The notes: generated from the sequence alone by a model not told the origin. 64,000 bases of DNA from an uncultured Rhodothermales bacterium (GCA_964383365.1 CAYLHF010000012.1:8745-72744); one strand, 5' to 3'; positions 33,070 to 60,979 are shown, counted from the first letter of the stretch. A program made the numbers and translations.

Positions 33070-33180
33070 TCGTCCATGAGTGATTCAAGACTCCGCCGCA
33101 AAGCGCAAACAGAACATGCACTCGCGGACCGGCTCTGGTAAATTCCGACCTATATCGTCGGAATACAACCAGAACGGCGG

Positions 33181-36543: not shown

Positions 36544-36553
36544 TGTTCGTCTC

Positions 36554-41554: not shown

Positions 41555-42322
41555 TCATATGACCCGTCTGGTCAGGAATATGATCGCAAGTACGATTACG
41601 ATGCCCAGTGTTCGCTGAATGGACTTTCCCGAGAAGCGGGCGGCGCCCAGATAAGATCCCAGTGCTCCACCGAGAAAGACGGCCGCGATTACAGGCCACC
41701 AGTACGACCAGTCCAGCGAATGATACTGGACGCGGGCGGCGACACCGGCAATCGAATTGGCCAGAATGAAGATTGACCCGGTAGCAGCTGCTTCTTTCTC
41801 TGAGCCCAGGTTGAAGACCAGAATCAGAGGTACCAGAAATATACCGCCCCCGATACCTACAATTCCGGCCAACATTCCGAGTATCGCACCGAGTACGAAC
41901 GGAAGAGCGCGTTTCATCGGGCCCGGCAATGCGTACTGGATCTGTACATCGGTCCAGAAGTAGATTCGAAAGGCCACGAATACAAGCGACGACAACAGTA
42001 ACCATTCAAAAACGACTCTTGAAATGGAGAGGGATCCGCCCAGAAAGGCCATCGGAATCGATGTTATCAAGAAAGGCAACACCAGACGGTAATTGACGTG
42101 CTTGAATCGAGCGTAATTCAGCGAACCAACAGACGTCACTGTAAGATTCAGGAGCAGAGATATCGTCGGTATTGATCCGAAACCGACTCCGGCAATTGAA
42201 AGCAACGCCGTGTAACTGGATCCGCCTCCCAGTCCGACCGAGGAATACATGAGAGCTACACAGAAGAACACGAGTGCAAGAATCCACACCAGCGAACCAT
42301 CAAAAAAAATAGATTCGACCAT
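41555..42322 (-). CDS. TauE/SafE-family anion (sulfite-type) exporter
   Basis: The 255-aa polytopic protein has the duplicated Gly-rich helices typical of TauE/SafE: VGLGGGSSYTALL and GIVGIGGGIFLVPLIL. Confidence 0.7.
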   Translation of the reverse strand: MVESIFFDGSLVWILALVFFCVALMYSSVGLGGGSSYTALLSIAGVGFGSIPTISLLLNLTVTSVGSLNYARFKHVNYRLVLPFLITSIPMAFLGGSLSISRVVFEWLLLSSLVFVAFRIYFWTDVQIQYALPGPMKRALPFVLGAILGMLAGIVGIGGGIFLVPLILVFNLGSEKEAAATGSIFILANSIAGVAARVQYHSLDWSYWWPVIAAVFLGGALGSYLGAARFSGKSIQRTLGIVIVLAIIFLTRRVI

Positions 42323-42483: not shown

Positions 42484-43485
42484 TCAAAACAGATCGATTT
42501 GACCGTTGATATGCAGGTCTTTACCAATGATCTCCATGTTGGCATTTACGACACGCGGATGGCATCCATTGCACGTAGTGACCTGAAGGTGTCCCTTCGG
42601 CGGTAGATCGTGGCACGTTCCGCACGCGGCCTGACCGCTTCCGACCTCCGTCCACTTCATCACCAGATGATTGCCTTCTATCTGCGGCGCGATATAAATA
42701 CCCGGGGCTGCACTGTCGGCCTTCTTGAATTCAAAATTTCCATGACAGTATACATTACTGCACGTATTGGCGACCGGATCATAGACCGGTGTAAGCGTGC
42801 CATTTGCCGTTGCGAACGAACTGAACAGAAGATCCGCACTCGGGGGACCACCATCCGTATGTCCCTCGGAAGAATACCGTTCTGGCTTGTTGTGACAGTG
42901 GCTGCACTCGGGATTCAGAATATTGGTCAGATCGCTTCCACCCATATGCGTCTGATGAGCCCCGACGCCCGGTGAGGTCGTTGAAATATTTCCACGCAGA
43001 TCTTCGGGAGGGGCAATACTTCCATCACTTCCGTGACAGGTCGTGCACGCTTCCGGGCCATCCACGTCCGTATGACACGTGAGACAACTCTTACCGTCCG
43101 TGCCATTTCCTGCATAATCGCTACCGTGGCAATTCTGACACACGGTAAGATCCCAGTGAACCTGATCCGCAACAGCCTGCGTGTGGAGATTGAGCCCCAG
43201 TGTGTCTGCAAACGCGGCAGGGTGTGGAAATACGCTGTGACATCCTGACGACTGACAGCTCACGCCGGCTACTGACCCTGAAAAGTCGTCGCCGTGACAC
43301 GTTGCGCAGGTCTCGGTCTTACCCGGAGTTTCCAGTACGAATTGACCGTGGAACGTCGACGATTGCGGATCGGCCCAGCCCGCCGGGTGCGTCGTAACGT
43401 CCGGGGGTTGAGCTGGATCGCTGCATGCGACAACGGTGATTGCCGCGAGAAAAAATAGAAAACCGCAAAAAAACCACTGCTTCAT
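42484..43485 (-). CDS. Multiheme c-type cytochrome lipoprotein (7 CxxCH + 2 CxxxxCH), OmcB-position of a porin-cytochrome triad
   Basis: The lipobox is AAITVVAC-S. Heme motifs are CATCH, CQSSGCH, CQNCH, CLTCH, CTTCH, CSHCH, CSNVYCH, CGTCH and CNGCH. The paired CxxxxCH...CxxCH arrangement recalls the Geobacter C4xCH/C2xCH domain. Confidence 0.8.
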   Translation of the reverse strand: MKQWFFCGFLFFLAAITVVACSDPAQPPDVTTHPAGWADPQSSTFHGQFVLETPGKTETCATCHGDDFSGSVAGVSCQSSGCHSVFPHPAAFADTLGLNLHTQAVADQVHWDLTVCQNCHGSDYAGNGTDGKSCLTCHTDVDGPEACTTCHGSDGSIAPPEDLRGNISTTSPGVGAHQTHMGGSDLTNILNPECSHCHNKPERYSSEGHTDGGPPSADLLFSSFATANGTLTPVYDPVANTCSNVYCHGNFEFKKADSAAPGIYIAPQIEGNHLVMKWTEVGSGQAACGTCHDLPPKGHLQVTTCNGCHPRVVNANMEIIGKDLHINGQIDLF

Positions 43486-43497
43486 AGTCTAATCAAT

Positions 43498-44463
43498 CTA
43501 CAGGGTAGAGTCGTGACACGTACCGCAGACCACGTCTGCATCATCCACGTGACATGACATACAGGTCTGAATATCATTAAGTGCCTCCAACCGGTGACGT
43601 CCTCCGTCGCCTTCGATGCGATTTACCCATCCCGGTGTGTGGCTGTGGGGCATCACCAGGTTTTGTGTGTGACACTCGGCGCAAAACGTCAAGTCGCTGT
43701 GGCAACTCTGGCACGTGACTTCCGCTGACTGTGCCTCCAGCGCATGCGTGAACTCCCAGTTGAGTGGGTGCGTACGTTCATCTATGTTCTCACTCTCATG
43801 GCAGTCCTGGCAGAAGTCGTCCTGATGACATGTCTGGCATGTCTTCTCACCATCGATCAGATTGGCATCGAATCGCGAGAGATCAGCATGAACTCTCCTG
43901 AAATCACCGTCATGACTCGGTGGCTTCAGTCGGTCCGTACCCAGATGACACGTCTGACACGTTACGGATACGGAACGATCCTCATGGCAGTCAAGGCAGG
44001 CCACCATCGAAGGCAACACGATAGGATCAACTTCCGTCTTCTCCGGCATCACGGCATGGCATGTTACACATGACAGTTCCGCCGTGAGATGTCTGTTGTG
44101 AGAAAATTTCTTGTTATAATCGACGATTCTGATCAACTCTACCGGAGCATCGCCGTTTTCGTGACACTGTACACAGTTGTCTGGATCCTCCACCTCATGA
44201 CAGTCCTCGCATGTCTCATGATCGGGGATCAGGTTGTCTGCCCCTGTTTCACTGTCTTCGGCGCTATCATGACAATCCAGACACTCCAATTCTTCCTGAA
44301 TAACGTGCCGCTCGTGTGAGAAGGTGAGGTTTTCTATCGGTGTGTTCTGGACGGAATCCGGTTGGATAAAATCAGACACGTCCGGCTGCAATAAAAAGAA
44401 CCCGACAATCAAGATGACGGCCCCCGGCAGCAACAGACGATTCAAGTCAAGATTCGATCTCAT
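43498..44463 (-). CDS. Dodecaheme c-type cytochrome (12 CxxCH), periplasmic/membrane-anchored
   Basis: It has an N-terminal hydrophobic anchor (LLLPGAVILIVGFFLL) and 12 CxxCH motifs: CLDCH, CEDCH, CVQCH, CVTCH, CLDCH, CQTCH x2, CQDCH, CQSCH, CAECH, CMSCH and CGTCH. Confidence 0.85.
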   Translation of the reverse strand: MRSNLDLNRLLLPGAVILIVGFFLLQPDVSDFIQPDSVQNTPIENLTFSHERHVIQEELECLDCHDSAEDSETGADNLIPDHETCEDCHEVEDPDNCVQCHENGDAPVELIRIVDYNKKFSHNRHLTAELSCVTCHAVMPEKTEVDPIVLPSMVACLDCHEDRSVSVTCQTCHLGTDRLKPPSHDGDFRRVHADLSRFDANLIDGEKTCQTCHQDDFCQDCHESENIDERTHPLNWEFTHALEAQSAEVTCQSCHSDLTFCAECHTQNLVMPHSHTPGWVNRIEGDGGRHRLEALNDIQTCMSCHVDDADVVCGTCHDSTL

Positions 44464-44493
44464 AGTAATAAATTAAAATCAGTGCGGGCCTGT

Positions 44494-45687
44494 TTATCTA
44501 AGCGCGTAACTGAGGCGAAGAAGCAATCTGGTATCGCTGGTGAAGTAAGAATTAGCTGTCTGCTGTACTCTCGCGTCAAATAACACATTCGAAACAGGCC
44601 TGTATTTGAAACCGCCTGAGAATGATGTAGCGTCCTCATTAAACGAGAGACTGCGCCTCTCGTAGCTGTAGTAGCTGCTGCGAATATTGACCTCAAAAGA
44701 ACGGGTAAGCGGGTACTTGAGGTCTCCGAAGACACCGGTATTATCCCCTCCAAACCCGGTCTTGTATACGAACCCTGCCGTCCCATACCGTGTGTCGGCC
44801 GAAATAAATACCTCATCGGTCGTGGATGTCTCTTTAAAACTCGTATGGACATATCGCACACCCAATTGAGCTGTCTTCGATCTCCACGACGCCCCGATAC
44901 GGAATTGATCTGCAGCCACGAGTTCAAAGAAATTGAAAAACGAATCTTCGAATACTCTCGGCTTCTGGCTATTGTACTCTGCCGAAATGGCCCATTTATC
45001 GGGACGATAGGTCAATCGATAACGCATGCGCTGGATGGTGGAAGCCTTCAGGTTGTATTCCAATTGAGCCTGATAAAACACATTCGACAACCACGTCCCT
45101 GCAATACCGGCACCCGCCTGCTGCCACGCATTCTGTCTTCCACTACGACGATTGATGAAACTGACGTCCAGTCGTGGACCACCGGAAGACGGTCGATATT
45201 CGGAATAAAACCCGATCAGACCGGCATCATCATACGACTGGACCGCAAGCGAGCGATTCCACGCAACCCGAGTCCCGCCGATTACCTGAACACTCCACTC
45301 CGGACGAGGCCTGAACGCCATCGATAGCCCGTCGAAGGAGCCCGAAAGTACGCCCCGATACAGGAACTGCCGACCCAGTCGGGAGACGAGTTTCCCGGAC
45401 GAACTTCGGTAATTCGCATACGCACTGTAAACGCGCTCCGTCCAGTCTCCAGGATCTCCCCGTCGGGCGATTCGGAAATTGGTCTTCAGCGTGAGTCTGG
45501 AGTTGGACGGTCTAACGCGGACATTAAACCCCTGAAAATAGTCCCATTGCTGATTCGACGATGCATTCTCGAGTCCATAAAGCATCGAATACACCTGGCC
45601 GTCTACGCGAGCCTGGCCACGTGCGCTTCCGAACTCCGAGAACAGCAAAAATAAAACCAGGATACCGCACAGAAGCGATCTACTCAT
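44494..45687 (-). CDS. Outer-membrane beta-barrel (porin-like) protein
   Basis: It has a signal peptide (LVLFLLFSEFGSARGQ), alternating hydrophobic/polar strands rich in Y/R/S/G throughout and no Cys. At 397 aa the size is compatible with a medium-sized barrel. It sits between cytochrome genes. Confidence 0.6.
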   Translation of the reverse strand: MSRSLLCGILVLFLLFSEFGSARGQARVDGQVYSMLYGLENASSNQQWDYFQGFNVRVRPSNSRLTLKTNFRIARRGDPGDWTERVYSAYANYRSSSGKLVSRLGRQFLYRGVLSGSFDGLSMAFRPRPEWSVQVIGGTRVAWNRSLAVQSYDDAGLIGFYSEYRPSSGGPRLDVSFINRRSGRQNAWQQAGAGIAGTWLSNVFYQAQLEYNLKASTIQRMRYRLTYRPDKWAISAEYNSQKPRVFEDSFFNFFELVAADQFRIGASWRSKTAQLGVRYVHTSFKETSTTDEVFISADTRYGTAGFVYKTGFGGDNTGVFGDLKYPLTRSFEVNIRSSYYSYERRSLSFNEDATSFSGGFKYRPVSNVLFDARVQQTANSYFTSDTRLLLRLSYALR

Positions 45688-45777
45688 GACTCACAGGCGA
45701 TTACGAATGATCATACGATCCGACCAAGAATATCAGATCTGTCGGACGAAATTCCTAATTCAGATCACCGCTCAACG

Positions 45778-46401
45778 CTACTTACCGGCCAATATTTCGG
45801 CTTTCGTAGCTTCCGGGATCGGATGGGCGATTTTGGCTTTAGCTTCCTCAAAGTTGAATCCTTTGAAAGCGGGGCTTTCGTCATTATGACAGGTGAGACA
45901 GGTAGCCTCATCAGGGATCTTGAGACCAACCGACTCGGGAGTAATCTCTCCCTTGACGAGTGCAATCATCGTCTTCTTTTTGTAGTAATTCTGTCCAGCA
46001 TTATGGCAGGATTCACAGCCTACGCCGTCCTCCATTTTGTATTTCTTTCCCAGAAATTCCGGATCGACACCGTAGCCAGTTACATGACATTTCAGACACG
46101 CTGGATCTTCCTGAGGACTGTCTATGCCGACAGCGGCACCGTATTCCTTCGCCTTGTCTCCCGCCAGGGTTTCATAGGCCTTCGCGTGGGCTGTTTTCTG
46201 CCAGATTCCGTACTGCTCACCCTGTTCCACTTTTTTGTGACAGGTCTTGCATTTTGCAACGCCCTGATACACGGCTTGATCGATTCCAACCAGGTCGAAC
46301 TGTCCATTATTTTGAACGACGCTCGACCTCATGGCCGTGTTCATGAATGAAAACCCGACGATCACGACCATCAGAAAAACACCGGTGATCTCCCGCTTCA
46401 T
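45778..46401 (-). CDS. Tetraheme c-type cytochrome (cytochrome c554-like family)
   Basis: It has an N-terminal anchor and 4 CxxCH motifs (CKTCH, CLKCH, CESCH, CLTCH). The spacing and the GVGCESCHNAGQNY context are as in c554-type proteins. Confidence 0.75.
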   Translation of the reverse strand: MKREITGVFLMVVIVGFSFMNTAMRSSVVQNNGQFDLVGIDQAVYQGVAKCKTCHKKVEQGEQYGIWQKTAHAKAYETLAGDKAKEYGAAVGIDSPQEDPACLKCHVTGYGVDPEFLGKKYKMEDGVGCESCHNAGQNYYKKKTMIALVKGEITPESVGLKIPDEATCLTCHNDESPAFKGFNFEEAKAKIAHPIPEATKAEILAGK

Positions 46402-46526
46402 TATTCTACCTCTAATTCCTTTGTAACGTTAGCCTATCCAGGCGAATATCTTTCGTTTGAAGGGTATCGCAGAATGTTCAGAGTATCAAATAGATCGGTC
46501 CTATTCGCGACATTTCATTACAAGAT

Positions 46527-46799
46527 TCATTCCGAATCTACATTCTCGGAGCGTCCCTTTACAAATTCGCGCCGCAAACCGACGAAGACATAGGTCAGTA
46601 CACTGGCTAATCCTAAAAATACGGGAACTGCTACAAGACTGATACCGATGCTCGCACCCAATGCGTCCTGATATCGGAGCGACAGAGATACCAGATTTAT
46701 CATCCAGATCGTTATTCCTCCGACGAAAAACCAGATCGCTGAGACGCTCGCTACCTGTAAAATGAAAATGAAAGGGGTATTTGGATCTGTTTTCTTCAT
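46527..46799 (-). CDS. Small two-TM membrane protein, ActD-position subunit of the quinone-module
   Basis: The 90-aa protein has two hydrophobic helices. Its start overlaps the NrfD-like gene stop by 4 nt (46796-46799). I recognise no family. Confidence 0.5.
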   Translation of the reverse strand: MKKTDPNTPFIFILQVASVSAIWFFVGGITIWMINLVSLSLRYQDALGASIGISLVAVPVFLGLASVLTYVFVGLRREFVKGRSENVDSE

Positions 46800-48127
46800 G
46801 ACACATCGGGTAGATAACTTTCAATTCTTTCGGATACTTCTTCCACACTTTCATCGCGACCTTCCTCTATTTCCCATACAGAAATCAGAGGGAAGACCTT
46901 GGAGAACAGCAAGAATCCGAGCATAAATACGGCAACGGCACCTGCGAACAGAGACCACTCGACGAGAGACGGGAGATAAGATCCTATGGGTAGATCCACT
47001 CTCGGGTTTGCGAGTGACGGAACTACGATGATAAATCGTTCCAACCACATCCCGATCACTACCGTGATGGAAGCGATCAGAATACCGGGAATCGTCTTGA
47101 GTTTCTTGAACGAGAGTATCGTCACGGGAATGATGAAATTGCACACCACCATCGCCCAAAAGTACACCGCAAATGGACCGGTAAATTTGTACCAGATAAT
47201 ATCCATTTCATGGGGCTCATTACCGAATACGCCTGTCAGGAATTCTGAGAACGTAAAGTAGAACCACAGGATCGACATGATGAGCAACAGACGACTCAAA
47301 TAATCGAAATGGATGAATTTCAGATACGCTTCGAAGTGATAGAGCTTCCGGAAAAATATCATCACGATCAGAAGGGCGGCAATTCCCGAGAAGATTGCTC
47401 CCACAACGAAATACGGTCCGAATATCGTACTGTGCCATCCCGGTTGGAGCGTCATCGAGAAGATATACGAGATGATCGTATGTACCGAGACTGCGATGGG
47501 GATGACCATGACCATCAAAATACTGATCGCACGATCGAGGATTTTGTGCTGATGAGGTGTTCCGGTCCAGCCCCAGGCCATAAACGTATAGAGTTTATTC
47601 AGCCGACCTCCTCGATCCCGAAGTTTTGCAATATCAGGAATCATGGGCAGGTACAGATAGACTGTGCTTGCTGTAAAATATGCGGTAACACTGGTAACGT
47701 CCCAGAGAAGTGGCGACTGCAAACGACCGACCGTGAACAGGTTCAGCATTCGGTCGGGACGCCCGAGATCCAGGATCGGATGAAGCCCCCCGATGGCCAG
47801 TACAATCGCTGTGATGACTTCTGCCATCCTCGTAATCGGTCGCCTCCACTCGGCCTGAGACAGCCGTAGTATCGCGGATATCAGCGTACCCGCATGACTA
47901 ATTCCGATGAAGAACACGAAGTTTACGATGTAGAACCCCCATGTCACGGGTTCATTCATTCCTGTAACACCGAGTCCGTATCGGATCTGGGTAATATACA
48001 TGTAGAGTGCCCAGACGATTACCGCCACGAGCACCACAACCGAAATGTAGAATCCTCGTCCCGTCTCATAAATCGGCCGGTATAGCGCGGCATCGGTGCC
48101 ATAGTCCTTTTTCTGTGTTTCAGCCAT
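46796..48127 (-). CDS. NrfD/PsrC/ActC-type integral membrane quinone-interacting subunit
   Basis: The conserved N-terminal region is GLGVTGMNEPVTWGFYIVNFVFFIGISHAGTLISAILRLSQAEWRRPITRMAEV. About 10 TM helices are predicted. Confidence 0.85.
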   Translation of the reverse strand: MAETQKKDYGTDAALYRPIYETGRGFYISVVVLVAVIVWALYMYITQIRYGLGVTGMNEPVTWGFYIVNFVFFIGISHAGTLISAILRLSQAEWRRPITRMAEVITAIVLAIGGLHPILDLGRPDRMLNLFTVGRLQSPLLWDVTSVTAYFTASTVYLYLPMIPDIAKLRDRGGRLNKLYTFMAWGWTGTPHQHKILDRAISILMVMVIPIAVSVHTIISYIFSMTLQPGWHSTIFGPYFVVGAIFSGIAALLIVMIFFRKLYHFEAYLKFIHFDYLSRLLLIMSILWFYFTFSEFLTGVFGNEPHEMDIIWYKFTGPFAVYFWAMVVCNFIIPVTILSFKKLKTIPGILIASITVVIGMWLERFIIVVPSLANPRVDLPIGSYLPSLVEWSLFAGAVAVFMLGFLLFSKVFPLISVWEIEEGRDESVEEVSERIESYLPDVS

Positions 48128-48129
48128 GA

Positions 48130-48813
48130 TTATTCTTTCTCCGCGAGATAGTAGACTTTGGGTTCTGTGCCCAGGTCCTCCATAACCCGGAGGGCACGTG
48201 TGCTGTGGGAACGCTCATAGACCTTGCTACTCTTGTCGTCCAGATCTCCGAATGTGATGGCGTCGGCGGGGCAGCTTTCCGCGCAGGCAGGGACGTATTC
48301 ACCGTCACGTACCTCGCGATCCTCCAGTGCAGCCTGTTCACGCGCCTTGATCAGACGGTGAGCGCAGAACGAACACTTTTCAACGACGCCCTTCATCCGG
48401 AGAGATACATCTGGATTATGGGTGGCATCCTGTGCTTCATTCCACTCAGGTTCATACCAATTGAATGACTTCGCCGTGAACGGACACGCCGCCATACAAT
48501 AGCGACATCCTATACAGCGGTTATAGATCTGAGCTACGAGCCCTTCGTCGTTTATGTAGGTAGCGTGAACCGGGCAAACACGCGTACACGGTGGATTATC
48601 ACAGTGGAAACAAAGACGAGGCACTCGTTTGGCGCTCATATCAGGATAGTCCCCTTCGTAGGCGGTCGTCATGTCCATCCAGAACATGGCACGACTCGAA
48701 TTCGCCTCCTCCGGGCTGACCACGGCTACATTATTCTCGATTTTGCACGCCGCGACACAGTCGCCACAGCCGGTGCACTTATCGAGATCTATGACCATTC
48801 CCCATTTAGGCAT
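48130..48813 (-). CDS. 4Fe-4S ferredoxin-type iron-sulfur subunit (PsrB/NrfC/ActB2-like)
   Basis: MVIDLDKCTGCGDCVAACKIENN and further Cys clusters are present (CFHCDNPPCTRVCP, CIGCRYCMAACP, CSFCAHRL...CAESCP). Confidence 0.85.
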   Translation of the reverse strand: MPKWGMVIDLDKCTGCGDCVAACKIENNVAVVSPEEANSSRAMFWMDMTTAYEGDYPDMSAKRVPRLCFHCDNPPCTRVCPVHATYINDEGLVAQIYNRCIGCRYCMAACPFTAKSFNWYEPEWNEAQDATHNPDVSLRMKGVVEKCSFCAHRLIKAREQAALEDREVRDGEYVPACAESCPADAITFGDLDDKSSKVYERSHSTRALRVMEDLGTEPKVYYLAEKE

Positions 48814-48855
48814 TGTGTGATCCTCTCGATTGCTTGCTAGGGTTTTTCATTTTCG

Positions 48856-51219
48856 TCAGGCTCTTTTCTTGATGCGAACCAGCGTGGATTGCGTGGCCGG
48901 TGTTCCGCCGAGGCGATCATATATTCCGGCCATAATAGCGTTCGGATTCTCGCCAAATCCATCGGCGTTCTGTCCGAAATTAGTGTGCCCCATACCGAAT
49001 GGAATTGCGACCGTGTTCGGGACAATTCCCTCGTGAATTTTTGCTTGGACCCGAACGGCTCCCTGTCTGGACTCGATCCATACCCAGTCACCATCCTGAA
49101 TGTCATTGTCAGCAGCTGTGACGGGACTCATTTCGACCCAGGTGTTCCAGTAGCATCTTACTGCCTGGCCCATCATTTCCTGAAGCATGCGATCATTAGC
49201 ACCCCGTCCATCTCGGTGCGTGAGCGTCTGAAATGTGATTAGATTCAGGTCATACCCGTCGCTCTCTATCGTCTCACTATGGGCTCCAGTCTCCAGTAGA
49301 TGCGCTGTCGTAAGATCGTATTTCCTCGATGACGTGTGGAATACCGGCGGTTTCTCGTACCGGACGGAATCGGGATTCCACCAGCCGCCCCTGTCGACCA
49401 ATTTTTTCCAGAACGAATCGAAGGAGCGCTCTCTTCCGGGAGTATGATTCGGTCGCGACGAACGATCCGACCAGAATTCCCCCGCGCTCTCAGACGCAAT
49501 CATTCCGGTACCGGATTCGAAGAGACCCCGGGTTTGATTTTTGATGGTTTCCTTCAGCGTTTTATATGGGTACGCTGCAGATACAGAGTCATCAAGCCGA
49601 TTCGCGATGTCAATCAGTACATCGGCAGGGGTTCTTGACTCATAGAAAGGAGCAATAACCGGCTGTTGGACACCCACATACGACATGGGAACCGTGGGAA
49701 CAGAATCGACGACACCCCAGGACTCCAGAAACGTGCTTGCCGGGAGGATGAGATCAGCATTTGCATTCGTTTCGTTCTGGAATACGTCAAAACTCACTGT
49801 CAGGGGTGTATTTCGAAGCAACGACTCGAAATCGTGATGACGGATCGAAGAAAACAACGGATTCCCACCAAAAAGGAACAGCACACTGACCGGATACGGA
49901 TCCTGAGCGCCGGCGTTGTTGATGAGTTCATCCGGGCTGAAGGCAACTGCCGGATAATCGCCCTTGGTGGAGCGACCAATCGGCAGGGCCTTGATACCCT
50001 CCCTAGCAATAGAATCAGGTTTTACGCTGGCAAAGGATGCAAAGGGAACGTCAGATGGTCGAACGACTCCGCCCTTCTTTCCAAGATTTCCCAGGAGCAC
50101 ATTCAGAGCGTGGACGGCGAGTGCCCCGGTTGTACCGTCAGTCGTAGAACGTAGGCCCTGGTCGCCCAGAATAATGGCATGATCGGCATGTCCGACCTCG
50201 CGCGCAATCGACTCGATCGTCTCCGATGGAATCCCGGTAAGCTCACCGACTTTCGCGGGATGATACGAGTCCATTACGATGGATTTGAATCCAGCGTGTT
50301 TTACACCCCGAGCGTCTTTCCAATCGTCAAAACCAACGGTTCTTTTGTCGACAAAAGATGCGTCATACAAATTGTCACGAATCAACACATGGGCTATACC
50401 CAGCGCAAATGACGCATACGTCCCTGGTTTGATAGGGACCCATTGGTCAGCATTCGACGCAGACAGATTCAGCCTGGCGTCAGCATGTATGATTCGTGCC
50501 CTAGATCCATCTTCGCGGTCCCTGGAACGACTGAATACCTTCGTATGGTATACGGGAGCATATCCCTCTTCAAGGTAATTGGCGCCCACGCTCAGTATGA
50601 CATCTGCATTTCCTGTGTCGTATGCCGGTAACGTACGTGTCCCTTCTGCCATCTCATGCGCCGCACCGGCAAAAACATCGTCAGCAAATCGATAATAATT
50701 TGGCGATCCAAACGCCTGCATGAATCGGTCAATATGCTGCTGCTCAAACGCCGATTCGTCGGAGCCGAGACAGACCAATTCTTCCGTCCTTTTCTCTCGA
50801 CGAAGTGTTGAGAGAGCTTCGTTAATCATATTGAGCGCCTCGTCCCACGAGATCTCCTCCCAATGACCATCTCCAGGTGATCCTACATGTCTCACTGGCT
50901 GCTTCAAGCGATCGGGGTTGAAGAGCATTCCGATCGAACTTCGGCCGAGCGGGCAAATTCCTCCGAGACTGATCGGATTCATCGGATTACCTTTGACCAT
51001 TATCGGGACATCGTCTATGAGGCGCACAGACAATCCGCATCCCCCCGGACATCGCCGGCAGATGGTATTCTTCCATGTCTCAATCCCTTTTCCCCTCTTG
51101 ACCTGCTCGACGAGTTCGTCCGGCACATCGATCATTTCATCGATACCAAATCCACCGAGAGCAATCGCTCCCGACACACCGCCCAGCAATCTCAAAAATT
51201 CGCGTCGCTGTATCTTCAT
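48856..51219 (-). CDS. Tat-exported molybdopterin-oxidoreductase-family (CISM) large subunit, PsrA/QrcB/ActB1-like; substrate and cofactor status unknown
   Basis: It has the twin-arginine signal MKIQRREFLRLLGG and an N-terminal Cys group C54-x2-C57-x3-C61...C89 (ICRRCPGGCGL...GGICPLG), which is typical of the FS0 [4Fe-4S] site. The length and overall pattern fit the family. Confidence 0.75.
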   Translation of the reverse strand: MKIQRREFLRLLGGVSGAIALGGFGIDEMIDVPDELVEQVKRGKGIETWKNTICRRCPGGCGLSVRLIDDVPIMVKGNPMNPISLGGICPLGRSSIGMLFNPDRLKQPVRHVGSPGDGHWEEISWDEALNMINEALSTLRREKRTEELVCLGSDESAFEQQHIDRFMQAFGSPNYYRFADDVFAGAAHEMAEGTRTLPAYDTGNADVILSVGANYLEEGYAPVYHTKVFSRSRDREDGSRARIIHADARLNLSASNADQWVPIKPGTYASFALGIAHVLIRDNLYDASFVDKRTVGFDDWKDARGVKHAGFKSIVMDSYHPAKVGELTGIPSETIESIAREVGHADHAIILGDQGLRSTTDGTTGALAVHALNVLLGNLGKKGGVVRPSDVPFASFASVKPDSIAREGIKALPIGRSTKGDYPAVAFSPDELINNAGAQDPYPVSVLFLFGGNPLFSSIRHHDFESLLRNTPLTVSFDVFQNETNANADLILPASTFLESWGVVDSVPTVPMSYVGVQQPVIAPFYESRTPADVLIDIANRLDDSVSAAYPYKTLKETIKNQTRGLFESGTGMIASESAGEFWSDRSSRPNHTPGRERSFDSFWKKLVDRGGWWNPDSVRYEKPPVFHTSSRKYDLTTAHLLETGAHSETIESDGYDLNLITFQTLTHRDGRGANDRMLQEMMGQAVRCYWNTWVEMSPVTAADNDIQDGDWVWIESRQGAVRVQAKIHEGIVPNTVAIPFGMGHTNFGQNADGFGENPNAIMAGIYDRLGGTPATQSTLVRIKKRA

Positions 51220-51247
51220 TTGTACTCTCTCTGATAGAAGGTGAACC

Positions 51248-51766
51248 TCATCGGTGGCAGGAAAGACAGTCGGTTTTCGCTTCCAGTTTTCGATGACAGT
51301 CCAGACATGCGTCCATCGAAAGTGGATAAAATGGAACCTCCGCGGGGGCCGTTAACTCACCCACGGGACCGTGGCAATTGGAACATTCCAGGTCGCCCGA
51401 AACAACATGTCGGCGATGCGAAAAGTAGACATGGTCTGGAACGGAATACACTCGCTGCCAATCGATTTCGGAGCCTGCCTCGATATGGGCAATCAGTTTG
51501 GCTTCTTCTGCAGAATCATCGGCGAGTGGATCCGAGTCATGACAGTCCAGGCAGACTTCCAGGTCAGGGAGCGTCGCCCTCGGAGACTCTTCTACCCGTT
51601 GATGACAATCCGTGCACTCGAGACCTTCCCCTTCCACATGAATATTGTGATTGTAAGCGATCGGCTGCACGACCGGATCAGGGGACGCAAAAATTGTCAA
51701 TCGCAGTACAAACGCAATGAGTAGGAACGGAATAGCAAAGCCGAAGACCTTCATTAGGGAAGACAT
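51248..51766 (-). CDS. Membrane-anchored pentaheme c-type cytochrome (cytochrome c3/ActA/QrcA-like)
   Basis: It has an N-terminal TM helix (VFGFAIPFLLIAFVL) and 5 CxxCH motifs (CTDCH, CLDCH, CSNCH, CLDCH, CLSCH). It is the first gene of the Mo/FeS/NrfD module. Confidence 0.8.
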   Translation of the reverse strand: MSSLMKVFGFAIPFLLIAFVLRLTIFASPDPVVQPIAYNHNIHVEGEGLECTDCHQRVEESPRATLPDLEVCLDCHDSDPLADDSAEEAKLIAHIEAGSEIDWQRVYSVPDHVYFSHRRHVVSGDLECSNCHGPVGELTAPAEVPFYPLSMDACLDCHRKLEAKTDCLSCHR

Positions 51767-51810
51767 TTCTGTTCGATCCGGTAAGTGAACGAGAATCTGA
51801 TTATCGAATC

Positions 51811-51850
51811 TGACCGGGGCGCTACACGAACCCGCGCAGCGCCCCGGTCA
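51811..51850 (-). terminator. GC-rich 13-bp hairpin between the EB_dh-like gene and the pentaheme gene (possible partial terminator/processing site)
   Basis: tgaccggggcgct (51811-51823) pairs perfectly with agcgccccggtca (51838-51850) around a 14-nt loop. The hairpin lies 27 nt downstream of the stop at 51877 on the minus strand and has no clear U-tract. Confidence 0.4.
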
Positions 51851-51876
51851 AATCGTCACGTGAATGACACGAGGCT

Positions 51877-54006
51877 CTACTTCAGCAGAACCATCTGACG
51901 GGTCTCTACACTCTTCTGAGCCATCAGCTGGTAGAAGTAGATCCCGGAAGCCAAGCCTTCTCCGGAGAACTCAACCTCGTACCGACCCGGAACCATATCG
52001 CGATTTACGAGCGTCTTGACGAGACGACCAAGCGAATCGTAGACATTTAGCGCGACGTGTTCTGAGTTCGATACATTGAAACGGATTCTCGTAACAGGAT
52101 TAAACGGGTTGGGATAATTCTGTTCGAGATCATACGTCACTGGAATCTCATCCGTAGCAAGTTCCTCTACACCCGTAATGGTAGAGAAGTCCAGGGTGTA
52201 AATGGTTCCATCAATGCCGTCGTTTGGATGCTCGTGTCCTTCGTTGTCGAAGATCTCATGGGTGAAATCTACGGTCCCGCCCGGAACGACTGCGAAGTCA
52301 TGCTCCGTACCGGCGTAGGCACGTTTGAATTCGACGGTCCACACACCATTTTTATAGCTACTGGATGTGGTAACGGATGCTCTGTCTCCATCGGGTACTC
52401 GCATGACGTAACCGGGAATTGTACTACCATTTACCCAGGCGGCATTCGGATCGAACGTCGTGGCCATGGACACTGCCGCCGACGAGTGAGCCGTCATGGC
52501 CGTCATCGCGGCGGCGTCCATCCCGAGGAATACCGGGCTTTCTGCCGGCCCGTTGGCCGCCATGAATTGTGGATTTCCATTGGCATCGGCCCCGTTGTCG
52601 GAATAGGCGCTCGTACCGCTGTCTCCATGCATGGTATCTGTTCCAACCCATTTATCATCGACATATCCCAGCGCTGTTCCGCCGCGAGCGGCCTTCCAGT
52701 GCCAGTTGTCTACGACACCGTTATTGGTTCTCATCACACCGTCAAAATGGCACATGGTTGTACAATTGGCGCCGTCAGTGCCGTTAAGTCCCATGTCGAA
52801 GATGAGTCCGAATCTATCTTCGTCGCCGGATTGTGTCCAGGACGTGCCATCGTACGCCCAGAGATGTTTATTAATGGACTCCGTCCCGGACTTATCGACC
52901 CACTGTGCGGACAGGTAGAAATCGTTCCCGTCGGCCATGGCATTCATCGTGACGCCATTGGCAGTGATGAGCGGCTGCGAGGTCCACTCACCCGGAGTGA
53001 CCGTACCATCCATTACCGGTGCTCCGCTGCCAACTACCAATCGCGTTGATCCTGTCAGTTGAGCGAAATCAAGCGTGTAGATGGTCCCGTCAACTCCATC
53101 GTTGGGATGGCTCCCTCCTTCATTGTCGAAGATTTCGTGCGTGAATGCCACGCTCCTACCCGGTGTAACCGTGAAGTCACCCGGAGATCCTGCATAAGAA
53201 CGTTTGAATTCGACCGTCCATACTCCATTGTCAAAAGTCGCCCGAGAAAGAACCGAAGCTCTGTCGCCCGACGGCACCCGGTTGATATATCCGGGAATTT
53301 TGGCACCGGCCGCCCAACCGGCATTCGGATCAAACGGAACAGCTATGGCTGCTGGAAGTGAGGTGTTCGCCTGCGCCAGGTCCTGTGCTGCCTGATCTTG
53401 CGTCAGATACGTGACACTCGTTCCCGGTCCACCCGTCGGCATGAAACTCGGATTTCCATTCGAATCGGACCCATTATCGGCATATGCACTGACGCCAGCA
53501 TCTCCGTGAAAATTATCGGTCCGAACATTTTTGTCATCGACGTACCCCATCGCCACACCACCACGTGCAGCCTTCCAGTGCCAGTTATCAGCGATGCCTG
53601 TATTGGTTCTCATCAGGCCGTCGAAATGACACATGGTCGTGCAACTCGCGCCGTCTGCACCGTTGAGGCCCATGTCGAATATGAAACCAAACCGATCTTC
53701 ATTTCCCGTCTGACTCCACGCGGTTCCGTCGTACGTCCACAGGTGTTTGTCGACGCTCATGGTATTCGTTTTATCCGTCCACTGCACCGCGAGATACAGA
53801 TCGTTTCCGTCCCCCATCGCGTACATCGTCACGTTGTTTGCCGTAACCAGGGCCGGGCCCGTGTATTCTCCCGAAGAGATAACGCCATCGAGTGTCGCGC
53901 TCCCGGGTGTGGCCGTCAGCGTGGTCTGAGCACTGGCATCGACTGCCAGAGCTGCGACGAAAACGGCGAATAGAAGTTGTTGTATATGTCCTCTCATTTT
54001 AGGCAC
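51877..54006 (-). CDS. T9SS-sorted surface protein with two tandem EB_dh/DOMON-like putative heme-binding domains, each carrying a CTTMCH motif
   Basis: It has a signal peptide (LLFAVFVAALAVDASAQ). An internal duplication covers aa ~29-320 and ~321-612, and each copy contains EDRFG.IFDMGLNG.DGA.CTTMCHFDG.MRTN.G..DNWHWKAARGG..GYVDDK, which is the EB_dh-like W.WKA signature. The CTTMCH codons are at 53626-53643 and 52747-52764. The C-terminus LEQNYPNPFNPVTRIRFNV...GIYFYQLMAQKSVETRQMVLLK is a T9SS CTD. The GTG at 54006 and the ATG at 53997 are both possible starts. Confidence 0.7.
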   Translation of the reverse strand: MPKMRGHIQQLLFAVFVAALAVDASAQTTLTATPGSATLDGVISSGEYTGPALVTANNVTMYAMGDGNDLYLAVQWTDKTNTMSVDKHLWTYDGTAWSQTGNEDRFGFIFDMGLNGADGASCTTMCHFDGLMRTNTGIADNWHWKAARGGVAMGYVDDKNVRTDNFHGDAGVSAYADNGSDSNGNPSFMPTGGPGTSVTYLTQDQAAQDLAQANTSLPAAIAVPFDPNAGWAAGAKIPGYINRVPSGDRASVLSRATFDNGVWTVEFKRSYAGSPGDFTVTPGRSVAFTHEIFDNEGGSHPNDGVDGTIYTLDFAQLTGSTRLVVGSGAPVMDGTVTPGEWTSQPLITANGVTMNAMADGNDFYLSAQWVDKSGTESINKHLWAYDGTSWTQSGDEDRFGLIFDMGLNGTDGANCTTMCHFDGVMRTNNGVVDNWHWKAARGGTALGYVDDKWVGTDTMHGDSGTSAYSDNGADANGNPQFMAANGPAESPVFLGMDAAAMTAMTAHSSAAVSMATTFDPNAAWVNGSTIPGYVMRVPDGDRASVTTSSSYKNGVWTVEFKRAYAGTEHDFAVVPGGTVDFTHEIFDNEGHEHPNDGIDGTIYTLDFSTITGVEELATDEIPVTYDLEQNYPNPFNPVTRIRFNVSNSEHVALNVYDSLGRLVKTLVNRDMVPGRYEVEFSGEGLASGIYFYQLMAQKSVETRQMVLLK

Positions 54007-54387: not shown

Positions 54388-55602
54388 TTATGCTGCGCGC
54401 CGATCCGGCGAGGAAGGGCCACATCCTTCCACCCGGCGAAGGGTACTCTTTCTCCTGATATCGCTTGTTTTCCGCGAGACGAGGCGTTTCATATACGCCA
54501 TGATAGCCTCAGCCCCGCTGTGCCCGTGTGGATCTGATTCAATAACGGGAATACCCTCACGAATCCCCTCCAGATCGGCACCTATCGGACCCGATCCCGT
54601 GTTGACAATGGCGACAATGGGCACGCCGATCTCTTCGAGAATCTTCACACCTGTCGCCGCCGCGAGGGCCGTGGGAGCTAACAGTAAGACTCCTGATATT
54701 CCGGGGAGAGACGCCAGTTCGGTAAGAACGACCTGTGATTCGGTATTCAATATTCCGTCAGAAATCTGTCCGACAATCACGTCAGGCCGCGGAATGGAAG
54801 CATCTGTTATCAGCGTGTAAAATAGCTGAGCGACTTCTACAGGTCGTGCTCCCCGGGTCGAAGGGAATCCATATTCGGCGAGATCACGAACGCTCGTGGC
54901 CGAACTGGATAGCATTTCGTCCAGATCGGGTGAACTCATTTCTCCCGTCAGACGACACATGGAGGCCCGAACCTTGTGTTCGGCCAGATGATTCACGAGT
55001 CCCGCGCTGGATTCGGTCAGGCCCTTCTCTGTGTCTGTTCCCACGGTAAGGAAGATGGGCGGAAGCGCGACCCGATTACGTGCCGGTTCAAAAAAGAGAT
55101 TCTTCAGGTTGATTCTGGAGCCTGCCTCGTCCCCGAGCACACCGCGCAATACCACGCGTGTCGGTGTTTGCTCTATCGCGTCGGGCAGTCGTCCAACGAT
55201 CCCTTCTTCCGACCACATCTCAAAGAAGCCTTCATTGGTAATCGGGAGCCGTTTTCCGCTCTTCTCCTGTTGTCCGATAATACCGATAATTACGTCACCG
55301 ACATGGAGTCGCATCCAGGCGCTGCTCTTTGTTCGGACATGGGCGATGTCGCCTACCGAACCAACTTCGACAATAACGACATCTCCAGGCCTGAGCGGGG
55401 GACGGTTCTTAATGTCGAGTTGTTGAAAAAGTCGTTTACTCTGCAGACTGCGACACGCCCAACTCCACCGTGTTCTTCCAGTTGCGTTCACACAATTCTG
55501 ACTTTTAACCAGCGTTCGCCGATCCATCTCGGAAGCGGTCGTGCCGGAGGGGATCATGAATCGAGTCTGTGCAGTTACGAGTGGTAATGATTTGTTTGTC
55601 AT
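54388..55602 (-). CDS. Hypothetical protein (about 400 aa), no family confidently recognised
   Basis: This is a long, clean ORF co-directional with its neighbours. ATG 55602 is preceded by gagg, and the ORF track uses GTG 55635. Only faint resemblance to alpha/beta nucleotide-binding-type proteins is visible (IFLTVGTDTEKGLTES..., Gly-rich C-terminal half). Confidence 0.5.
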   Translation of the reverse strand: MTNKSLPLVTAQTRFMIPSGTTASEMDRRTLVKSQNCVNATGRTRWSWACRSLQSKRLFQQLDIKNRPPLRPGDVVIVEVGSVGDIAHVRTKSSAWMRLHVGDVIIGIIGQQEKSGKRLPITNEGFFEMWSEEGIVGRLPDAIEQTPTRVVLRGVLGDEAGSRINLKNLFFEPARNRVALPPIFLTVGTDTEKGLTESSAGLVNHLAEHKVRASMCRLTGEMSSPDLDEMLSSSATSVRDLAEYGFPSTRGARPVEVAQLFYTLITDASIPRPDVIVGQISDGILNTESQVVLTELASLPGISGVLLLAPTALAAATGVKILEEIGVPIVAIVNTGSGPIGADLEGIREGIPVIESDPHGHSGAEAIMAYMKRLVSRKTSDIRRKSTLRRVEGCGPSSPDRRAA

Positions 55603-55873: not shown

Positions 55874-57562
55874 TCAGACCTGATCCAGCTTGAACTCGGT
55901 CAGCCTGCGATAGAACGTCGCCCGAGATATGCCAAGCAATTTGGCGGCCGCTTTGCGGTTGCCCTCCGTGTGCCGAAGGGCCGCCAGGATACGATCACGC
56001 TCATCGTCGGGTAATCCGTCAGGAAGCAAATCGGCCGCCACCGACGTGCGAACCTCCGGCGGGAGCGAATTCGCCTCGATGATACTCCCGGGAGTATGAA
56101 TCATTGCGTATTCAATCGCATTGGCAAGTTCGCGCACGTTTCCCGGCCAATTGTACTCCAGCATGCAACGGACCGCCGATTCACCGAGTGTGTCAATTTC
56201 TACTCCTGATTTTGCCGATAGGCCACTCAGGAAGTGGTACGCAAGGAGTGGAATATCGCTTCTCCGTTCCCGGAGAGGAGGCAGCTCCAGGCGGGCGACT
56301 CGGATGCGGAATAACAGGTCCTGTCTGAAGGTCCCGTTCTCGACCTCGGTGGGAAGATGTCGGTGCGAAGCGGCAACAATACGAACATCTACCTTTCTTG
56401 CCTTGGTCTCACCGACACGCGTAACGGTTCGTTCCTCCAGGACGCGAAGCAGATTCACCTGAATATCCAACGGAATATCTCCAATCTCATCCAGGAACAA
56501 GGTTCCCCCGTTCGCAGCGCCAAAGTAGCCGGGTTCGTCCGAAATGGCACCGGTGAATGAGCCTCTCTTATGTCCGAAAAGCTGACTCGCTACCAGCGAC
56601 TCTGTGAGTGCACCGCAGTTCACTGCTACAAAGGGCTTGGATGCCCTGGCACTGGCATCGTGAATGGCACGAGCAACGAGTTCTTTTCCGGTCCCCGTCT
56701 CTCCCTCTATTAAGACAGTAGAATCGAAGCGTGCGGCCGACTTGATTTGATCAAAAATGCGATTCATCGGCTCACTGTCGCCGATAATGTCTCCGCCTTT
56801 GTTTTGTCGGGCCAGCTGTCGTCGGAGGTCATGGACCTTCGTAACATCGTAAAAAACGAACAAGCGCCGTCGCTTTTCCTGAGGATCTCTGCGGATGTCG
56901 AGTTCCATGTGATAGGATTGGCCGTGGTCGAGAGAAATCCTCGTAGGAATACGCGTCGACGTTCCGTCTTCAGAATCAAATTTAGCGCGTACGCGCGAGA
57001 TCGTCTCCGACTGAAAGGGCAGCACTCGATCCCACATAAGGCCCAGGGCATCAGACTCATTGATTCCGAGTAATCGTCGAGCTACCTGACTGACGAACAC
57101 GATTCTACCGTCCGCGTCCGTAATTACCGTCCCGATTCGGAGTCCGTCGAGCAGAAGCTGCAAATTATCCCGATCCCGGCGAAGTAGTCTGTGAGATCTG
57201 TATTTGGATAATGCAACCTCGATATTCGCACGTAACTCGCTCTCCTGAAACGGTTTGATCACATACCCGAATGGTCCGGTGGCGTTGGCTCTATTGAGCG
57301 TTTGTTCGTCTCCAAAAGCCGTGAGAAAAACAACAGGCACGTCTTGTGACTCCCTGATCAACTGCGCAGCTTCGATCCCATCCATCGTCCCTTCCAGATG
57401 GACATCCATGAGGATCAGGTCCGGCCGTAGAGCCGACGCTCGCCTGACGGCCTGCTCGCCTGAAACAACTTTATCGACCACCTGATACCCCAGCTGCTGC
57501 AGGTGGTATTCCAACTCCAGAGCGGTTATCGCTTCATCTTCAACTATCAGTACCTTTACCAC
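55874..57562 (-). CDS. Sigma-54-dependent response regulator (REC-PAS-AAA+-HTH, NtrC family)
   Basis: The REC domain is VLIVEDE...DLILMDVHL. The AAA+ sigma-54 interaction domain has GETGTGKELVARAIH, GHKRGSFTGA and LFLDEIGD. The C-terminal Fis-type HTH is NRKAAAKLLGISRATFYRRL. Confidence 0.9.
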   Translation of the reverse strand: MVKVLIVEDEAITALELEYHLQQLGYQVVDKVVSGEQAVRRASALRPDLILMDVHLEGTMDGIEAAQLIRESQDVPVVFLTAFGDEQTLNRANATGPFGYVIKPFQESELRANIEVALSKYRSHRLLRRDRDNLQLLLDGLRIGTVITDADGRIVFVSQVARRLLGINESDALGLMWDRVLPFQSETISRVRAKFDSEDGTSTRIPTRISLDHGQSYHMELDIRRDPQEKRRRLFVFYDVTKVHDLRRQLARQNKGGDIIGDSEPMNRIFDQIKSAARFDSTVLIEGETGTGKELVARAIHDASARASKPFVAVNCGALTESLVASQLFGHKRGSFTGAISDEPGYFGAANGGTLFLDEIGDIPLDIQVNLLRVLEERTVTRVGETKARKVDVRIVAASHRHLPTEVENGTFRQDLLFRIRVARLELPPLRERRSDIPLLAYHFLSGLSAKSGVEIDTLGESAVRCMLEYNWPGNVRELANAIEYAMIHTPGSIIEANSLPPEVRTSVAADLLPDGLPDDERDRILAALRHTEGNRKAAAKLLGISRATFYRRLTEFKLDQV

Positions 57563-57586
57563 TATCCTTCTCCGACTGGTCGTCGA

Positions 57587-60721: not shown

Positions 60722-60923
60722 AGCTATAGGTACGCGCTACAAAATGACGGAAACCGGTAATTTCCGATCACAAAAACCAATCCAAATCGATCTTTAATAG
60801 AAATTTAATTTTGAATCAACAGAAATGGATGGGATGTGAAGGATAATATAGATTCTATTCCGTATTTACCGTAGCAGGCCAATGAAAGAGCGTCCTACCG
60901 TGCCACCCCCACCGTTTTACTTT

Positions 60924-60939
60924 GGCACCGCTTTTGCAA
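60924..60939 (+). promoter_or_regulatory. Consensus sigma-54 (-24/-12) promoter of the S8 protease gene
   Basis: TGGCACcgcttTTGCA is an exact match to TGGCAC-N5-TTGCA. It lies ~40 nt upstream of ATG 60980, in the divergent intergenic region shared with the kinase/NtrC-type regulator operon. Confidence 0.8.
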
Positions 60940-60979
60940 GTTCAGCCTGCCCCTTCGTTCGAAAGAACCGTTGACCGTT

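Follow-up and report, generated by a model that had tools for sequence, protein, structure and literature searches.

A candidate envelope-spanning electron conduit with a type IX-sorted heme-domain protein in an uncultured Rhodothermales bacterium

A stretch of 64,000 nucleotides from an uncultured Rhodothermales bacterium (GCA_964383365.1 CAYLHF010000012.1:8745-72744), referred to as a whole as the window, contains a candidate locus for extracellular electron transfer (EET). Ten co-directional minus-strand open reading frames (ORFs), numbered g1 to g10, fill positions 42484-54006 in the ORF listing of the window, with successive intergenic distances of 110, 28, 42, 2, -4, 125, 90, 30 and 12 nt. 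The chances are judged slightly better than even that they encode parts of one envelope-spanning electron conduit with a surface heme protein delivered through type IX secretion (T9SS). A prediction made from the sequence alone (the original prediction) had listed ten minus-strand genes, and all of these ORFs are present; it had also counted 30 CxxCH or CxxxxCH heme-binding sites and two CxxxCH sites, with which the motif counts agree (five CxxCH in g2, four in g7, 12 in g9, and seven CxxCH with two CxxxxCH in g10, plus the two CTTMCH motifs of g1). Each component identity that it had proposed was confirmed by Pfam, NCBIfam, Protein Data Bank (PDB) or fold matches or, for the small membrane protein g6, by prediction of its membrane segments, and an export signal, lipobox or transmembrane (TM) anchor was found on all of the cytochromes. 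Functional statements throughout are drawn from sequence, predicted structure and synteny.

The outermost component would be the product of g1, which combines two EB_dh domains (PF09459, 139 bits against a cut-off of 33, in two stretches) with a C-terminal sorting domain (CTD) that exceeds both curated T9SS cut-offs (Por_Secre_tail PF18962, 34.5 bits against 27; TIGR04183, 35.9 bits against 23). Together with the Sec signal peptide read from the translation (..DASA, followed by QTT), this is the sequence pattern of a type A T9SS cargo protein. The start is probably the ATG at 53997 used in public gene calls, giving 706 aa, as opposed to a GTG at 54006 (709 aa). An AlphaFold2 (AF2) model of the EB_dh domain and CTD, with a predicted local distance difference test score (pLDDT) of 87.4, has as its top PDB fold matches NxrC (7b04_C) and EbdC (2ivf_C), the heme subunits of type II molybdenum (Mo) enzymes, and the CTD matches those of RemA (8gl6_D) and mirolase (8qb1_A). 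A PDB sequence search with g1 gave no useful match.

The two EB_dh domains of g1 are 62% identical to each other and contain one CTTMCH motif apiece. Exactly one CxxxCH motif per EB_dh domain occurs in all 94 g1 relatives listed, with C96, C100, H101 and M106 invariant in the family alignment. An exhaustive search of 1.84 billion representatives recovered 411 proteins at E <= 0.001, and the motif is kept in 124 of the 143 distant representatives retrieved, the remainder being mostly fragments; some relatives (P0132, P0134-P0140) are fused to multiheme cytochrome domains. The invariant CxxxCH predicts a covalently bound heme c in g1, unlike the non-covalent heme b of the EbdC and NxrC gamma subunits with which it has the EB_dh fold in common. 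It differs from these subunits also in its tandem domains, in its T9SS sorting domain and in having no type II alpha/beta enzyme partner, the neighbouring g3 scoring only 47.8 bits against the EbdA model (cut-off 2000). The proteins related to g1 thus seem to constitute a small family of cytochromes in which an EB_dh fold bears covalent heme, and its branch in the Fibrobacterota-Chlorobiota-Bacteroidota (FCB) group looks to have acquired T9SS sorting domains. An extracellular heme protein resembling the gamma subunit of EBDH has been reported on a Methanoperedens Borg, where a role in electron transfer was suggested.

A carbohydrate-binding role of the CBM9 type was considered for g1 and rejected, as the CBM9 matches reflect a shared fold and the heme motif is invariant. 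A profile scan with the alignment of the g1 domain and CTD returned 80 loci (L010-L089) captured by the sorting-domain pattern NYPNPFNP, which are unrelated T9SS cargo without EB_dh, Qrc-like or barrel genes. A glutamine follows the predicted signal-peptidase site of g1 (ASA, then Q), and Q25 is invariant in the family of the barrel protein g8; glutamine after the cleavage site in both would fit what is reportedly known as the 'Bacteroidetes Q-rule'.

The five genes that follow, g2 to g6, are best described as a hybrid of alternative complex III (ACIII) and Qrc, with a split B subunit as in Qrc, an ActC-like subunit as in ACIII and a small TM subunit placed like ActD. The four-gene order of g2-g5 is that of QrcABCD in Desulfovibrio and other sulfate reducers, in which the Mo-fold subunit is likewise Tat-exported and without a Mo ligand, and Qrc models are the best NCBIfam matches for g2, g3 and g4. 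However, all four fall below the equivalog cut-offs (QrcA 96.8 bits against 180, QrcB 309.5 against 440, QrcC 286.1 against 400 and QrcD only 36.0 against 570), g5 is ActC/DsrP-like (DsrP, 111 bits), a conserved subunit with two predicted TM segments (g6) is added, the module is physically joined to conduit genes, and the host is an FCB-group bacterium rather than a sulfate reducer. Among solved structures, the closest relatives of g2, which Pfam and NCBIfam place with the c7/c3-type pentaheme cytochromes, are ActA chains of ACIII (8k9e_A, 6btm_A and 6f0k_A, E about 1e-24). Those of g4, which also matches DsrO at 189 bits, and g5 are respectively the C-terminal iron-sulfur (FeS) domain of ActB (6f0k_B residues 797-1023, E = 1.2e-58) and ActC (8k9e_C, 6lod_C, 6f0k_C and 6btm_C, E = 1e-75 to 1e-70).

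ACIII, known from Rhodothermus, Flavobacterium and Roseiflexus, the first two of which are also FCB-group bacteria, has in common with this locus a pentaheme anchor, and its small TM subunit ActD comes after the NrfD-type subunit, the place taken here by g6. By contrast, ActB is a single Mo-fold/FeS polypeptide, whereas the corresponding domains are divided here between two ORFs, g3 and g4, that lie 42 nt apart; the Mo-fold of g3 is far closer to ArrA and PsrA than to ActB (E = 1e-59 against 1e-12); no second NrfD-like ActF and no monoheme ActE ORF is found between 42484 and 54006; and g6 has no detectable similarity to any solved chain. The small membrane protein of the original prediction is present and is encoded by the 90-aa frame at 46527-46799; a longer overlapping ORF of 117 aa (46501-46854) has no TM segments and is a shadow frame. 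No Pfam, NCBIfam or PDB match was obtained for g6, and homologues come after the NrfD gene in L008, L092, L095, L098, L103, L125, L172 and other loci, so that it appears from its context to be a conserved fifth subunit of the Qrc-like complex, in the position held by ActD in ACIII. A metagenome scan with g3 returned 80 loci with relatives 31-43% identical, nearly all of which have the order g2-g3-g4-g5, with a g6-like gene also present in the closer ones.

The product of g3 has a twin-arginine leader (QRREFLR, seen in the translation) and, as its nearest structures, ArrA (6cz7, E = 6e-59) and PsrA (2vpw, E = 9e-46), with ActB matched only at about 1e-12. The Mo-ligand cysteine of ArrA (C153 of the chain) and of PsrA (C173) aligns to Ala184/Phe183 of g3, and this segment is unconserved across 58 relatives, including those named by JGI 'menaquinone reductase, molybdopterin-binding-like subunit'. 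The FS0 4Fe-4S cysteines C54, C57, C61 and C89 are invariant in the same alignment. Because the ligand is replaced in an unconserved column while the FS0 cysteines are kept, g3 is taken from the alignments to be a cofactor-less electron-transfer scaffold of the kind found in Qrc and ACIII, and not a reductase.

The last four genes resemble a porin-cytochrome conduit (Pcc), in that a barrel gene, g8, stands beside those for an exported multiheme cytochrome (g9) and a multiheme lipoprotein (g10). The barrel nature of the 397-aa g8 product, proposed at the outset, is borne out by structure prediction: an AF2 model built from 54 homologues (pLDDT 90.5, predicted TM-score 0.79) is an uninterrupted all-beta strand ladder, and Foldseek returns only outer-membrane barrels (porins and ushers) from the PDB, the best query TM-scores (0.58-0.60) being to the 24-strand ushers FimD and PapC. 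In width the modelled barrel exceeds a diffusion porin, as would suit a sheath around a cytochrome. There is no Pfam or NCBIfam match for g8 at E <= 0.01, and hence none to the MtrB/PioB family, for which NCBIfam presumably holds a model. Its own family consists of 56 clusters from metagenome-assembled genomes of Rhodothermia, Rhodothermales and Calditrichaceae. The PDB matches of g9, which has an N-terminal hydrophobic segment serving as signal or anchor, include the Geobacter dodecaheme 'nanowire' cytochrome GSU1996 (3ov0, 318 aa) and c7 cytochromes, and its orthologue always comes after the barrel gene (L001, L002, L005, L006 and L091). The product of g10 contains the Geobacter CxxxxCH/CxxCH domain (TIGR01904, 36.8 bits against a cut-off of 27; PF09698, 32.9 bits), and the lipobox cysteine is kept in its orthologues in L001 (..IAAC) and L002 (..SFSC); a PDB sequence search gave no useful match.

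From these features the products of g8-g10 are proposed to assemble and to conduct electrons through the outer membrane. The same triad of barrel, periplasmic multiheme cytochrome and lipoprotein multiheme cytochrome is found in the Geobacter-type Pcc (OmaB-OmbB-OmcB and the Ext clusters) and in OetABI of syntrophic sulfate reducers, and g10 carries the TIGR01904 domain in keeping with it. The heme numbers are inverted, however, with eight in OmaB and 12 in OmcB as opposed to 12 in the inner partner and nine in the lipoprotein here; a dedicated c554-type gene precedes the barrel gene; the neighbouring extracellular partner is a T9SS cargo protein; and the g8 family is small, has no Pfam or NCBIfam model, and is set beside OmbB, ExtB and OetI by gene context. 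Pcc clusters have been reported in Ignavibacterium album and in Ignavibacteria metagenome-assembled genomes (PMC4245776, PMC7399161). In L006, CcmF-like heme-lyase genes (Cytochrom_C_asm with CcmF_C, 13162-15630) directly follow the lipoprotein cytochrome gene and may serve specifically to mature the unusual CxxxxCH sites; the window has no CcmF-like heme-lyase gene.

The c554-type gene is g7, orthologues of which (184-294 bits) lie directly upstream of the barrel gene in L001, L005, L006 and L091, while more distant c554-like genes (63-128 bits) adjoin Qrc-like modules in L092, L093, L172 and L173. With c554-like genes occurring alongside either kind of module, g7 could plausibly act as an adaptor common to the two.

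Table 1. Features of the locus and of the flanking sequence
Feature	Position	Strand	Basis
g1, surface hemoprotein (predicted), 706 aa	51877-53997	-	PF09459, PF18962, TIGR04183
g2, membrane-anchored pentaheme cytochrome c, ActA/QrcA-like	51248-51766	-	one N-terminal TM segment, 5 CxxCH
g3, Tat-exported molybdopterin-family subunit, QrcB-like scaffold	48856-51219	-	Molybdop_Fe4S4, Molybdopterin and Molydop_binding
g4, periplasmic poly-ferredoxin subunit (QrcC / ActB C-terminal half)	48130-48813	-	4Fe-4S dicluster domains
g5, NrfD-type integral membrane quinone-interacting subunit	46796-48127	-	PF03916, 128 bits; 9-10 predicted TM segments
g6, 90-aa protein with two predicted TM segments	46527-46799	-	translation; 4-nt overlap with g5
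g7, periplasmic tetraheme c554-type cytochrome	45778-46401	-	PF13435, 79.6 bits; signal sequence; 4 CxxCH
g8, outer-membrane beta-barrel of about 22-24 strands, 397 aa	44494-45687	-	AF2 and Foldseek
g9, dodecaheme cytochrome with c7-type triheme repeats, 321 aa	43498-44463	-	12 CxxCH; PF14522, 53.7 bits
g10, lipoprotein multiheme cytochrome	42484-43485	-	lipobox ..TVVAC21; 7 CxxCH and 2 CxxxxCH
Inverted repeat, perfect, 19 nt with 5-nt loop	54184-54226		repeat search; about 190 nt upstream of the g1 start
389-aa ORF	54388-55557	-	JGI gene call, no Pfam family; between response regulator and g1
Sigma-54-type response regulator (putative)	55874-57562	-	receiver, AAA+ sigma-54-activator and helix-turn-helix read from translation; no Pfam in public record
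Beta-propeller/Y_Y_Y histidine kinase	57587-60721	-	Pfam marks in public record

The ten genes, which according to the original prediction could form one wire, are not a single conserved unit: g1-g6 and g7-g10 occur apart in relatives. One set, module A, consists of the EB_dh-T9SS protein, the Qrc-like complex and the small TM subunit, and recurs in contigs of Ignavibacteria or Bacteroidota type; the other, module B, consists of the c554 cytochrome, barrel, 12-heme cytochrome and lipoprotein cytochrome, and recurs in Rhodothermia and Calditrichaceae. In the window, module A (g1-g6) and module B (g7-g10) meet. In L008, L009, L173 and L092 the EB_dh-T9SS gene lies immediately upstream of a set comprising the QrcA-like, B, C, NrfD and small TM genes, and in L172 it is 10 kb upstream of the Qrc-like genes; equal contig sizes suggest further pairings of EB_dh proteins with g3 relatives (P0086/P0196, P0091/P0203, P0103/P0221 and P0058/P0173). 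Module B is complete in L001, L005, L006 and L091, with the triad only in L002. The nearest module B relative is L091, in which the barrel is 63% identical and downstream synteny (TauE, DUF1761, RNase T) is common to both loci; its contig ends just upstream of the c554 gene, so that it does not show recurrence of the full arrangement. The gene right after g10 encodes a TauE/SafE-family membrane protein (41555-42322, minus strand, in the window; 4010-4801 in L091).

The delivery of an outer end by T9SS, also suggested initially, gains independent support from this comparison, in that predicted T9SS-sorted heme proteins recur beside homologous barrel triads elsewhere. T9SS-sorted cytochromes are encoded within 10 kb of the triad in three of four independent loci, these being proteins of 917 aa with nine CxxCH motifs (L001), 873 aa with nine (L002) and 482 aa with eight (L006). 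The quinone neighbours of module B vary, with Rieske/cytochrome b and a 9-heme cytochrome in L001 and L006, and NapC/NirT-multiheme fusions in L002, L005 and L006. A Rieske/cytochrome b pair followed by a gene for a 9-heme cytochrome of about 430 aa and a c554-like gene is found at 3207-9320 in L172, 6528-9381 in L001 and 6403-9263 in L006; this arrangement adjoins both module types, with two pairs in L172, and suggests that these lineages draw on a common stock of quinone modules that can replace one another.

In the proposed mechanism, g2-g6 would form a five-subunit inner-membrane complex that exchanges electrons with menaquinone through a quinone site in g5, an FeS chain in g4 with FS0 of g3, and the pentaheme g2. 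Soluble tetraheme g7 would shuttle electrons across the periplasm between this complex and the conduit, where the 12-heme g9, sitting in the g8 barrel, would pass them to g10 on the outer face. The product of g1 would cross the inner membrane by the Sec pathway, gain covalent heme at its two CxxxCH motifs in the periplasm, and then be exported and surface-anchored by type IX secretion, to act as the outermost redox partner toward minerals, humics or other cells. T9SS cargo crosses the inner membrane by Sec and is exported after periplasmic folding, with which periplasmic heme attachment to g1 is compatible. Quinol oxidation with transfer to an external acceptor such as Fe(III) oxide is held to be the somewhat likelier direction of flow, and the chain is probably reversible.

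Several points weigh against a single wire of this kind. The full ten-gene arrangement is found only on this contig, in identical JGI and NCBI copies, and the modules are apart in relatives, among five independent barrel loci inspected. Genes of the g1-g6 type occur without any barrel gene in L008, L173, L092 and L172, and in L008, L173 and L172 genes for 4-heme and for 9-heme cytochromes instead come after module A; a neighbouring conduit is therefore not strictly required by g1 and the Qrc-like complex. The 125-nt gap between g6 and g7 holds a weak promoter-like match (46427-46400), and g1-g6 and g7-g10 may be transcribed separately. For g1, a surface location and heme attachment at CxxxCH are predicted from sequence, the source organism is an uncultured metagenomic bin, and the Qrc of sulfate reducers runs inward, reducing quinone, a precedent for the opposite direction.

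The strongest alternative is the same wire operated inward, which would involve oxidation at g1/g10 of Fe(II) outside the cell, of a cathodic mineral or of a syntrophic partner and, by way of g9/g8 and g7, reduction of menaquinone by the Qrc-like complex. It is judged less likely than not, though a serious rival. The best NCBIfam matches of g2, g3 and g4 are Qrc models, as noted above, and a route from an outer-membrane conduit through TpIc3/c554 to Qrc has been proposed for electron uptake in syntrophic sulfate reducers, the partner bacteria of anaerobic methanotrophic archaea (ANME) (PMC10553843). The source is also consistent with such a role, being a hydrothermal mat whose vent fluids are assumed to supply Fe(II). 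Set against this, g5 resembles the quinol-oxidising ActC (256 bits) far more than QrcD (36 bits), and sister triads are paired with NapC/NirT-type and Rieske/cytochrome b-type modules, which are of quinol-dehydrogenase type and normally oxidise quinol; both observations favour outward flow. Furthermore, at neutral pH Fe(II) is a marginal reductant of menaquinone in thermodynamic terms, and no linked carbon-fixation or terminal-oxidase genes are present within the window.

The environmental setting is known from IMG metagenome 3300002231, a hydrothermal red mat sample, in which a 91-kb contig carries the locus in identical form. These red mats are presumably rich in iron oxide. The sample ('RED') is from the North Santorini caldera floor at 336 m, L006 derives from the Kolumbo chimney mat 'V59', and dissolved Fe(II) in hydrothermal fluids is described for a different, buried site (PMC13534618).

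A second alternative is that two unrelated respiratory modules are simply neighbours, with g1-g6 encoding a Qrc/ACIII-type quinol:cytochrome c oxidoreductase and an accessory secreted hemoprotein, and g7-g10 a conduit fed by other inner-membrane enzymes. The modules are separate in every other inspected locus, the g6-g7 gap with its promoter-like match lies between them, and g7 orthologues go with the barrel and not with Qrc-like genes. This alternative is nevertheless regarded as more doubtful than inward flow. All ten genes have a common strand with no intervening genes and no terminator-like site in the g6-g7 gap, and in other loci c554-like genes adjoin modules of either type. In addition, module B always adjoins some quinone module, for which g2-g6 are the sole candidate here, and a surface heme protein such as g1 needs a route across the outer membrane, for which g8-g10 are the only candidates in the window.

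A third possibility, rated improbable, is that g1 stands outside the wire and is a T9SS-secreted heme protein acting as a donor to secreted oxidative enzymes, as a heme or iron scavenger, or as a redox sensor. T9SS cargo proteins are mostly hydrolases and adhesins, and an unrelated second cargo gene is indeed found in the window (62606-63982, minus strand; 458 aa; Por_Secre_tail 29.3 bits, no other recognisable domain), which suggests that type IX secretion also serves other proteins of the organism; no T9SS machinery gene occurs within the annotated parts of the window. The EB_dh, DOMON and CBM9 folds are related, with Foldseek also giving the CBM9 module 7nwo for g1, and g1-type genes occur without a nearby barrel gene. 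However, the invariant CxxxCH, as a predicted covalent heme c site, points to a cytochrome rather than to a reversible heme binder, as do the relatives fused to multiheme cytochrome domains. Moreover, in at least five loci (L008, L009, L092, L173 and the window) a gene of this type lies immediately upstream of the genes for a respiratory complex and in the same orientation, and the T9SS cargo proteins at homologous barrel loci are multiheme cytochromes.

Finally, the reading of g3 as a catalytic Psr/Phs/Arr-type molybdoenzyme acting on polysulfide, thiosulfate or arsenate, with the cytochromes feeding a periplasmic reductase, has in its favour the nearest solved structures (ArrA and PsrA) and a PhsA match of 269 bits over the full length, but it is very improbable and was rejected, as the Mo ligand is missing, the ligand segment is unconserved even in QrcB-annotated relatives, the PhsA and ArrA scores are far under the curated cut-offs (694 and 1600), and the QrcA-B-C-D order is kept in nearly all of the 80 related loci.

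With respect to novelty, the favoured envelope-spanning conduit is of a known kind. The combination of modules had been put forward as undescribed; this stands for the link between T9SS cargo and multiheme cytochromes or EET, for which no paper was found in the literature search, and not for the path from conduit through c554/c3 and Qrc to quinone, which is not conceptually new because it has already been proposed for syntrophic sulfate reducers (PMC10553843). A literature search on EB_dh/PF09459 likewise found nothing on such systems, and a survey of inner-membrane quinol oxidases in EET covered CymA, CbcL/MtoC and ImcH and did not extend to Qrc/ACIII-type modules (PMC6295460). What is new is the barrel family, the physical joining of a Qrc/ACIII hybrid to a conduit, and heme proteins as T9SS cargo at such loci.

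A wider proposition can be advanced tentatively, with chances judged somewhat short of even: that in FCB-group bacteria type IX secretion is a dedicated route for placing terminal EET redox proteins on the surface, and that the CxxxCH EB_dh-fold proteins are an unrecognised class of surface cytochrome, genetically wired to a Qrc/ACIII hybrid and fed, in this case, by a new family of porin-cytochrome conduit. EET is mechanistically understood almost only in Shewanella and Geobacter, where lipoproteins or filaments make up the surface cytochromes. Iron-rich mats, sediments and anode biofilms harbour abundant FCB-group bacteria (Ignavibacteria, Rhodothermia, Calditrichia and Bacteroidota), and we know of no account of their outer-surface redox machinery. 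The locus offers a testable parts list, consisting of a small barrel family always accompanied by 12-heme and lipoprotein cytochromes, a Qrc/ACIII-hybrid module and T9SS-sorted heme proteins. If the proposition is true, the system would be an analogue of the type II secretion-dependent MtrC/OmcA arrangement built from entirely different parts, and extracellular redox biology would gain a new class of cytochrome in the CxxxCH EB_dh-fold domain. Were T9SS the export route, cultivable relatives mutated in T9SS would be expected to lose respiration of minerals or electrodes, and CTD-bearing cytochromes would provide a simple genomic marker of the capability across the superphylum.

Upstream of g1, the perfect inverted repeat listed in Table 1 is unique in the window and lies between the 389-aa ORF and g1; it may terminate transcription of the ORF upstream or serve as an operator. 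Scans for sigma-70 promoters and terminators gave no more sites than shuffled sequence. Beyond the 389-aa ORF are the genes for a histidine kinase and a putative sigma-54-type response regulator, and a sigma-54 two-component pair is often found ahead of the EB_dh gene in relatives (L008, L173), as well as ahead of the T9SS cytochrome gene of L002, so that this system is possibly associated with g1-g10. No TGGCAC-N5-TTGC site occurs upstream of g1, and the 44 matches in the window with up to two mismatches equal the chance expectation. The only perfect sigma-54 -24/-12 match, TGGCACCGCTTTTGC at 60923-60937 on the plus strand, is 34 nt upstream of a subtilase (Peptidase_S8) gene (60971-62353, plus strand) that is divergent from the kinase and response regulator pair. 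The target of the two-component system (55874-60721) may therefore be the protease rather than the cytochrome cluster. On the downstream side, genes at 31687-39628 (minus strand) encode RmuC, a UvrD-helicase/PD-(D/E)XK nuclease of 1156 aa and a 1024-aa ORF; these resemble an AddAB-type repair pair and appear to be unrelated to the cluster.

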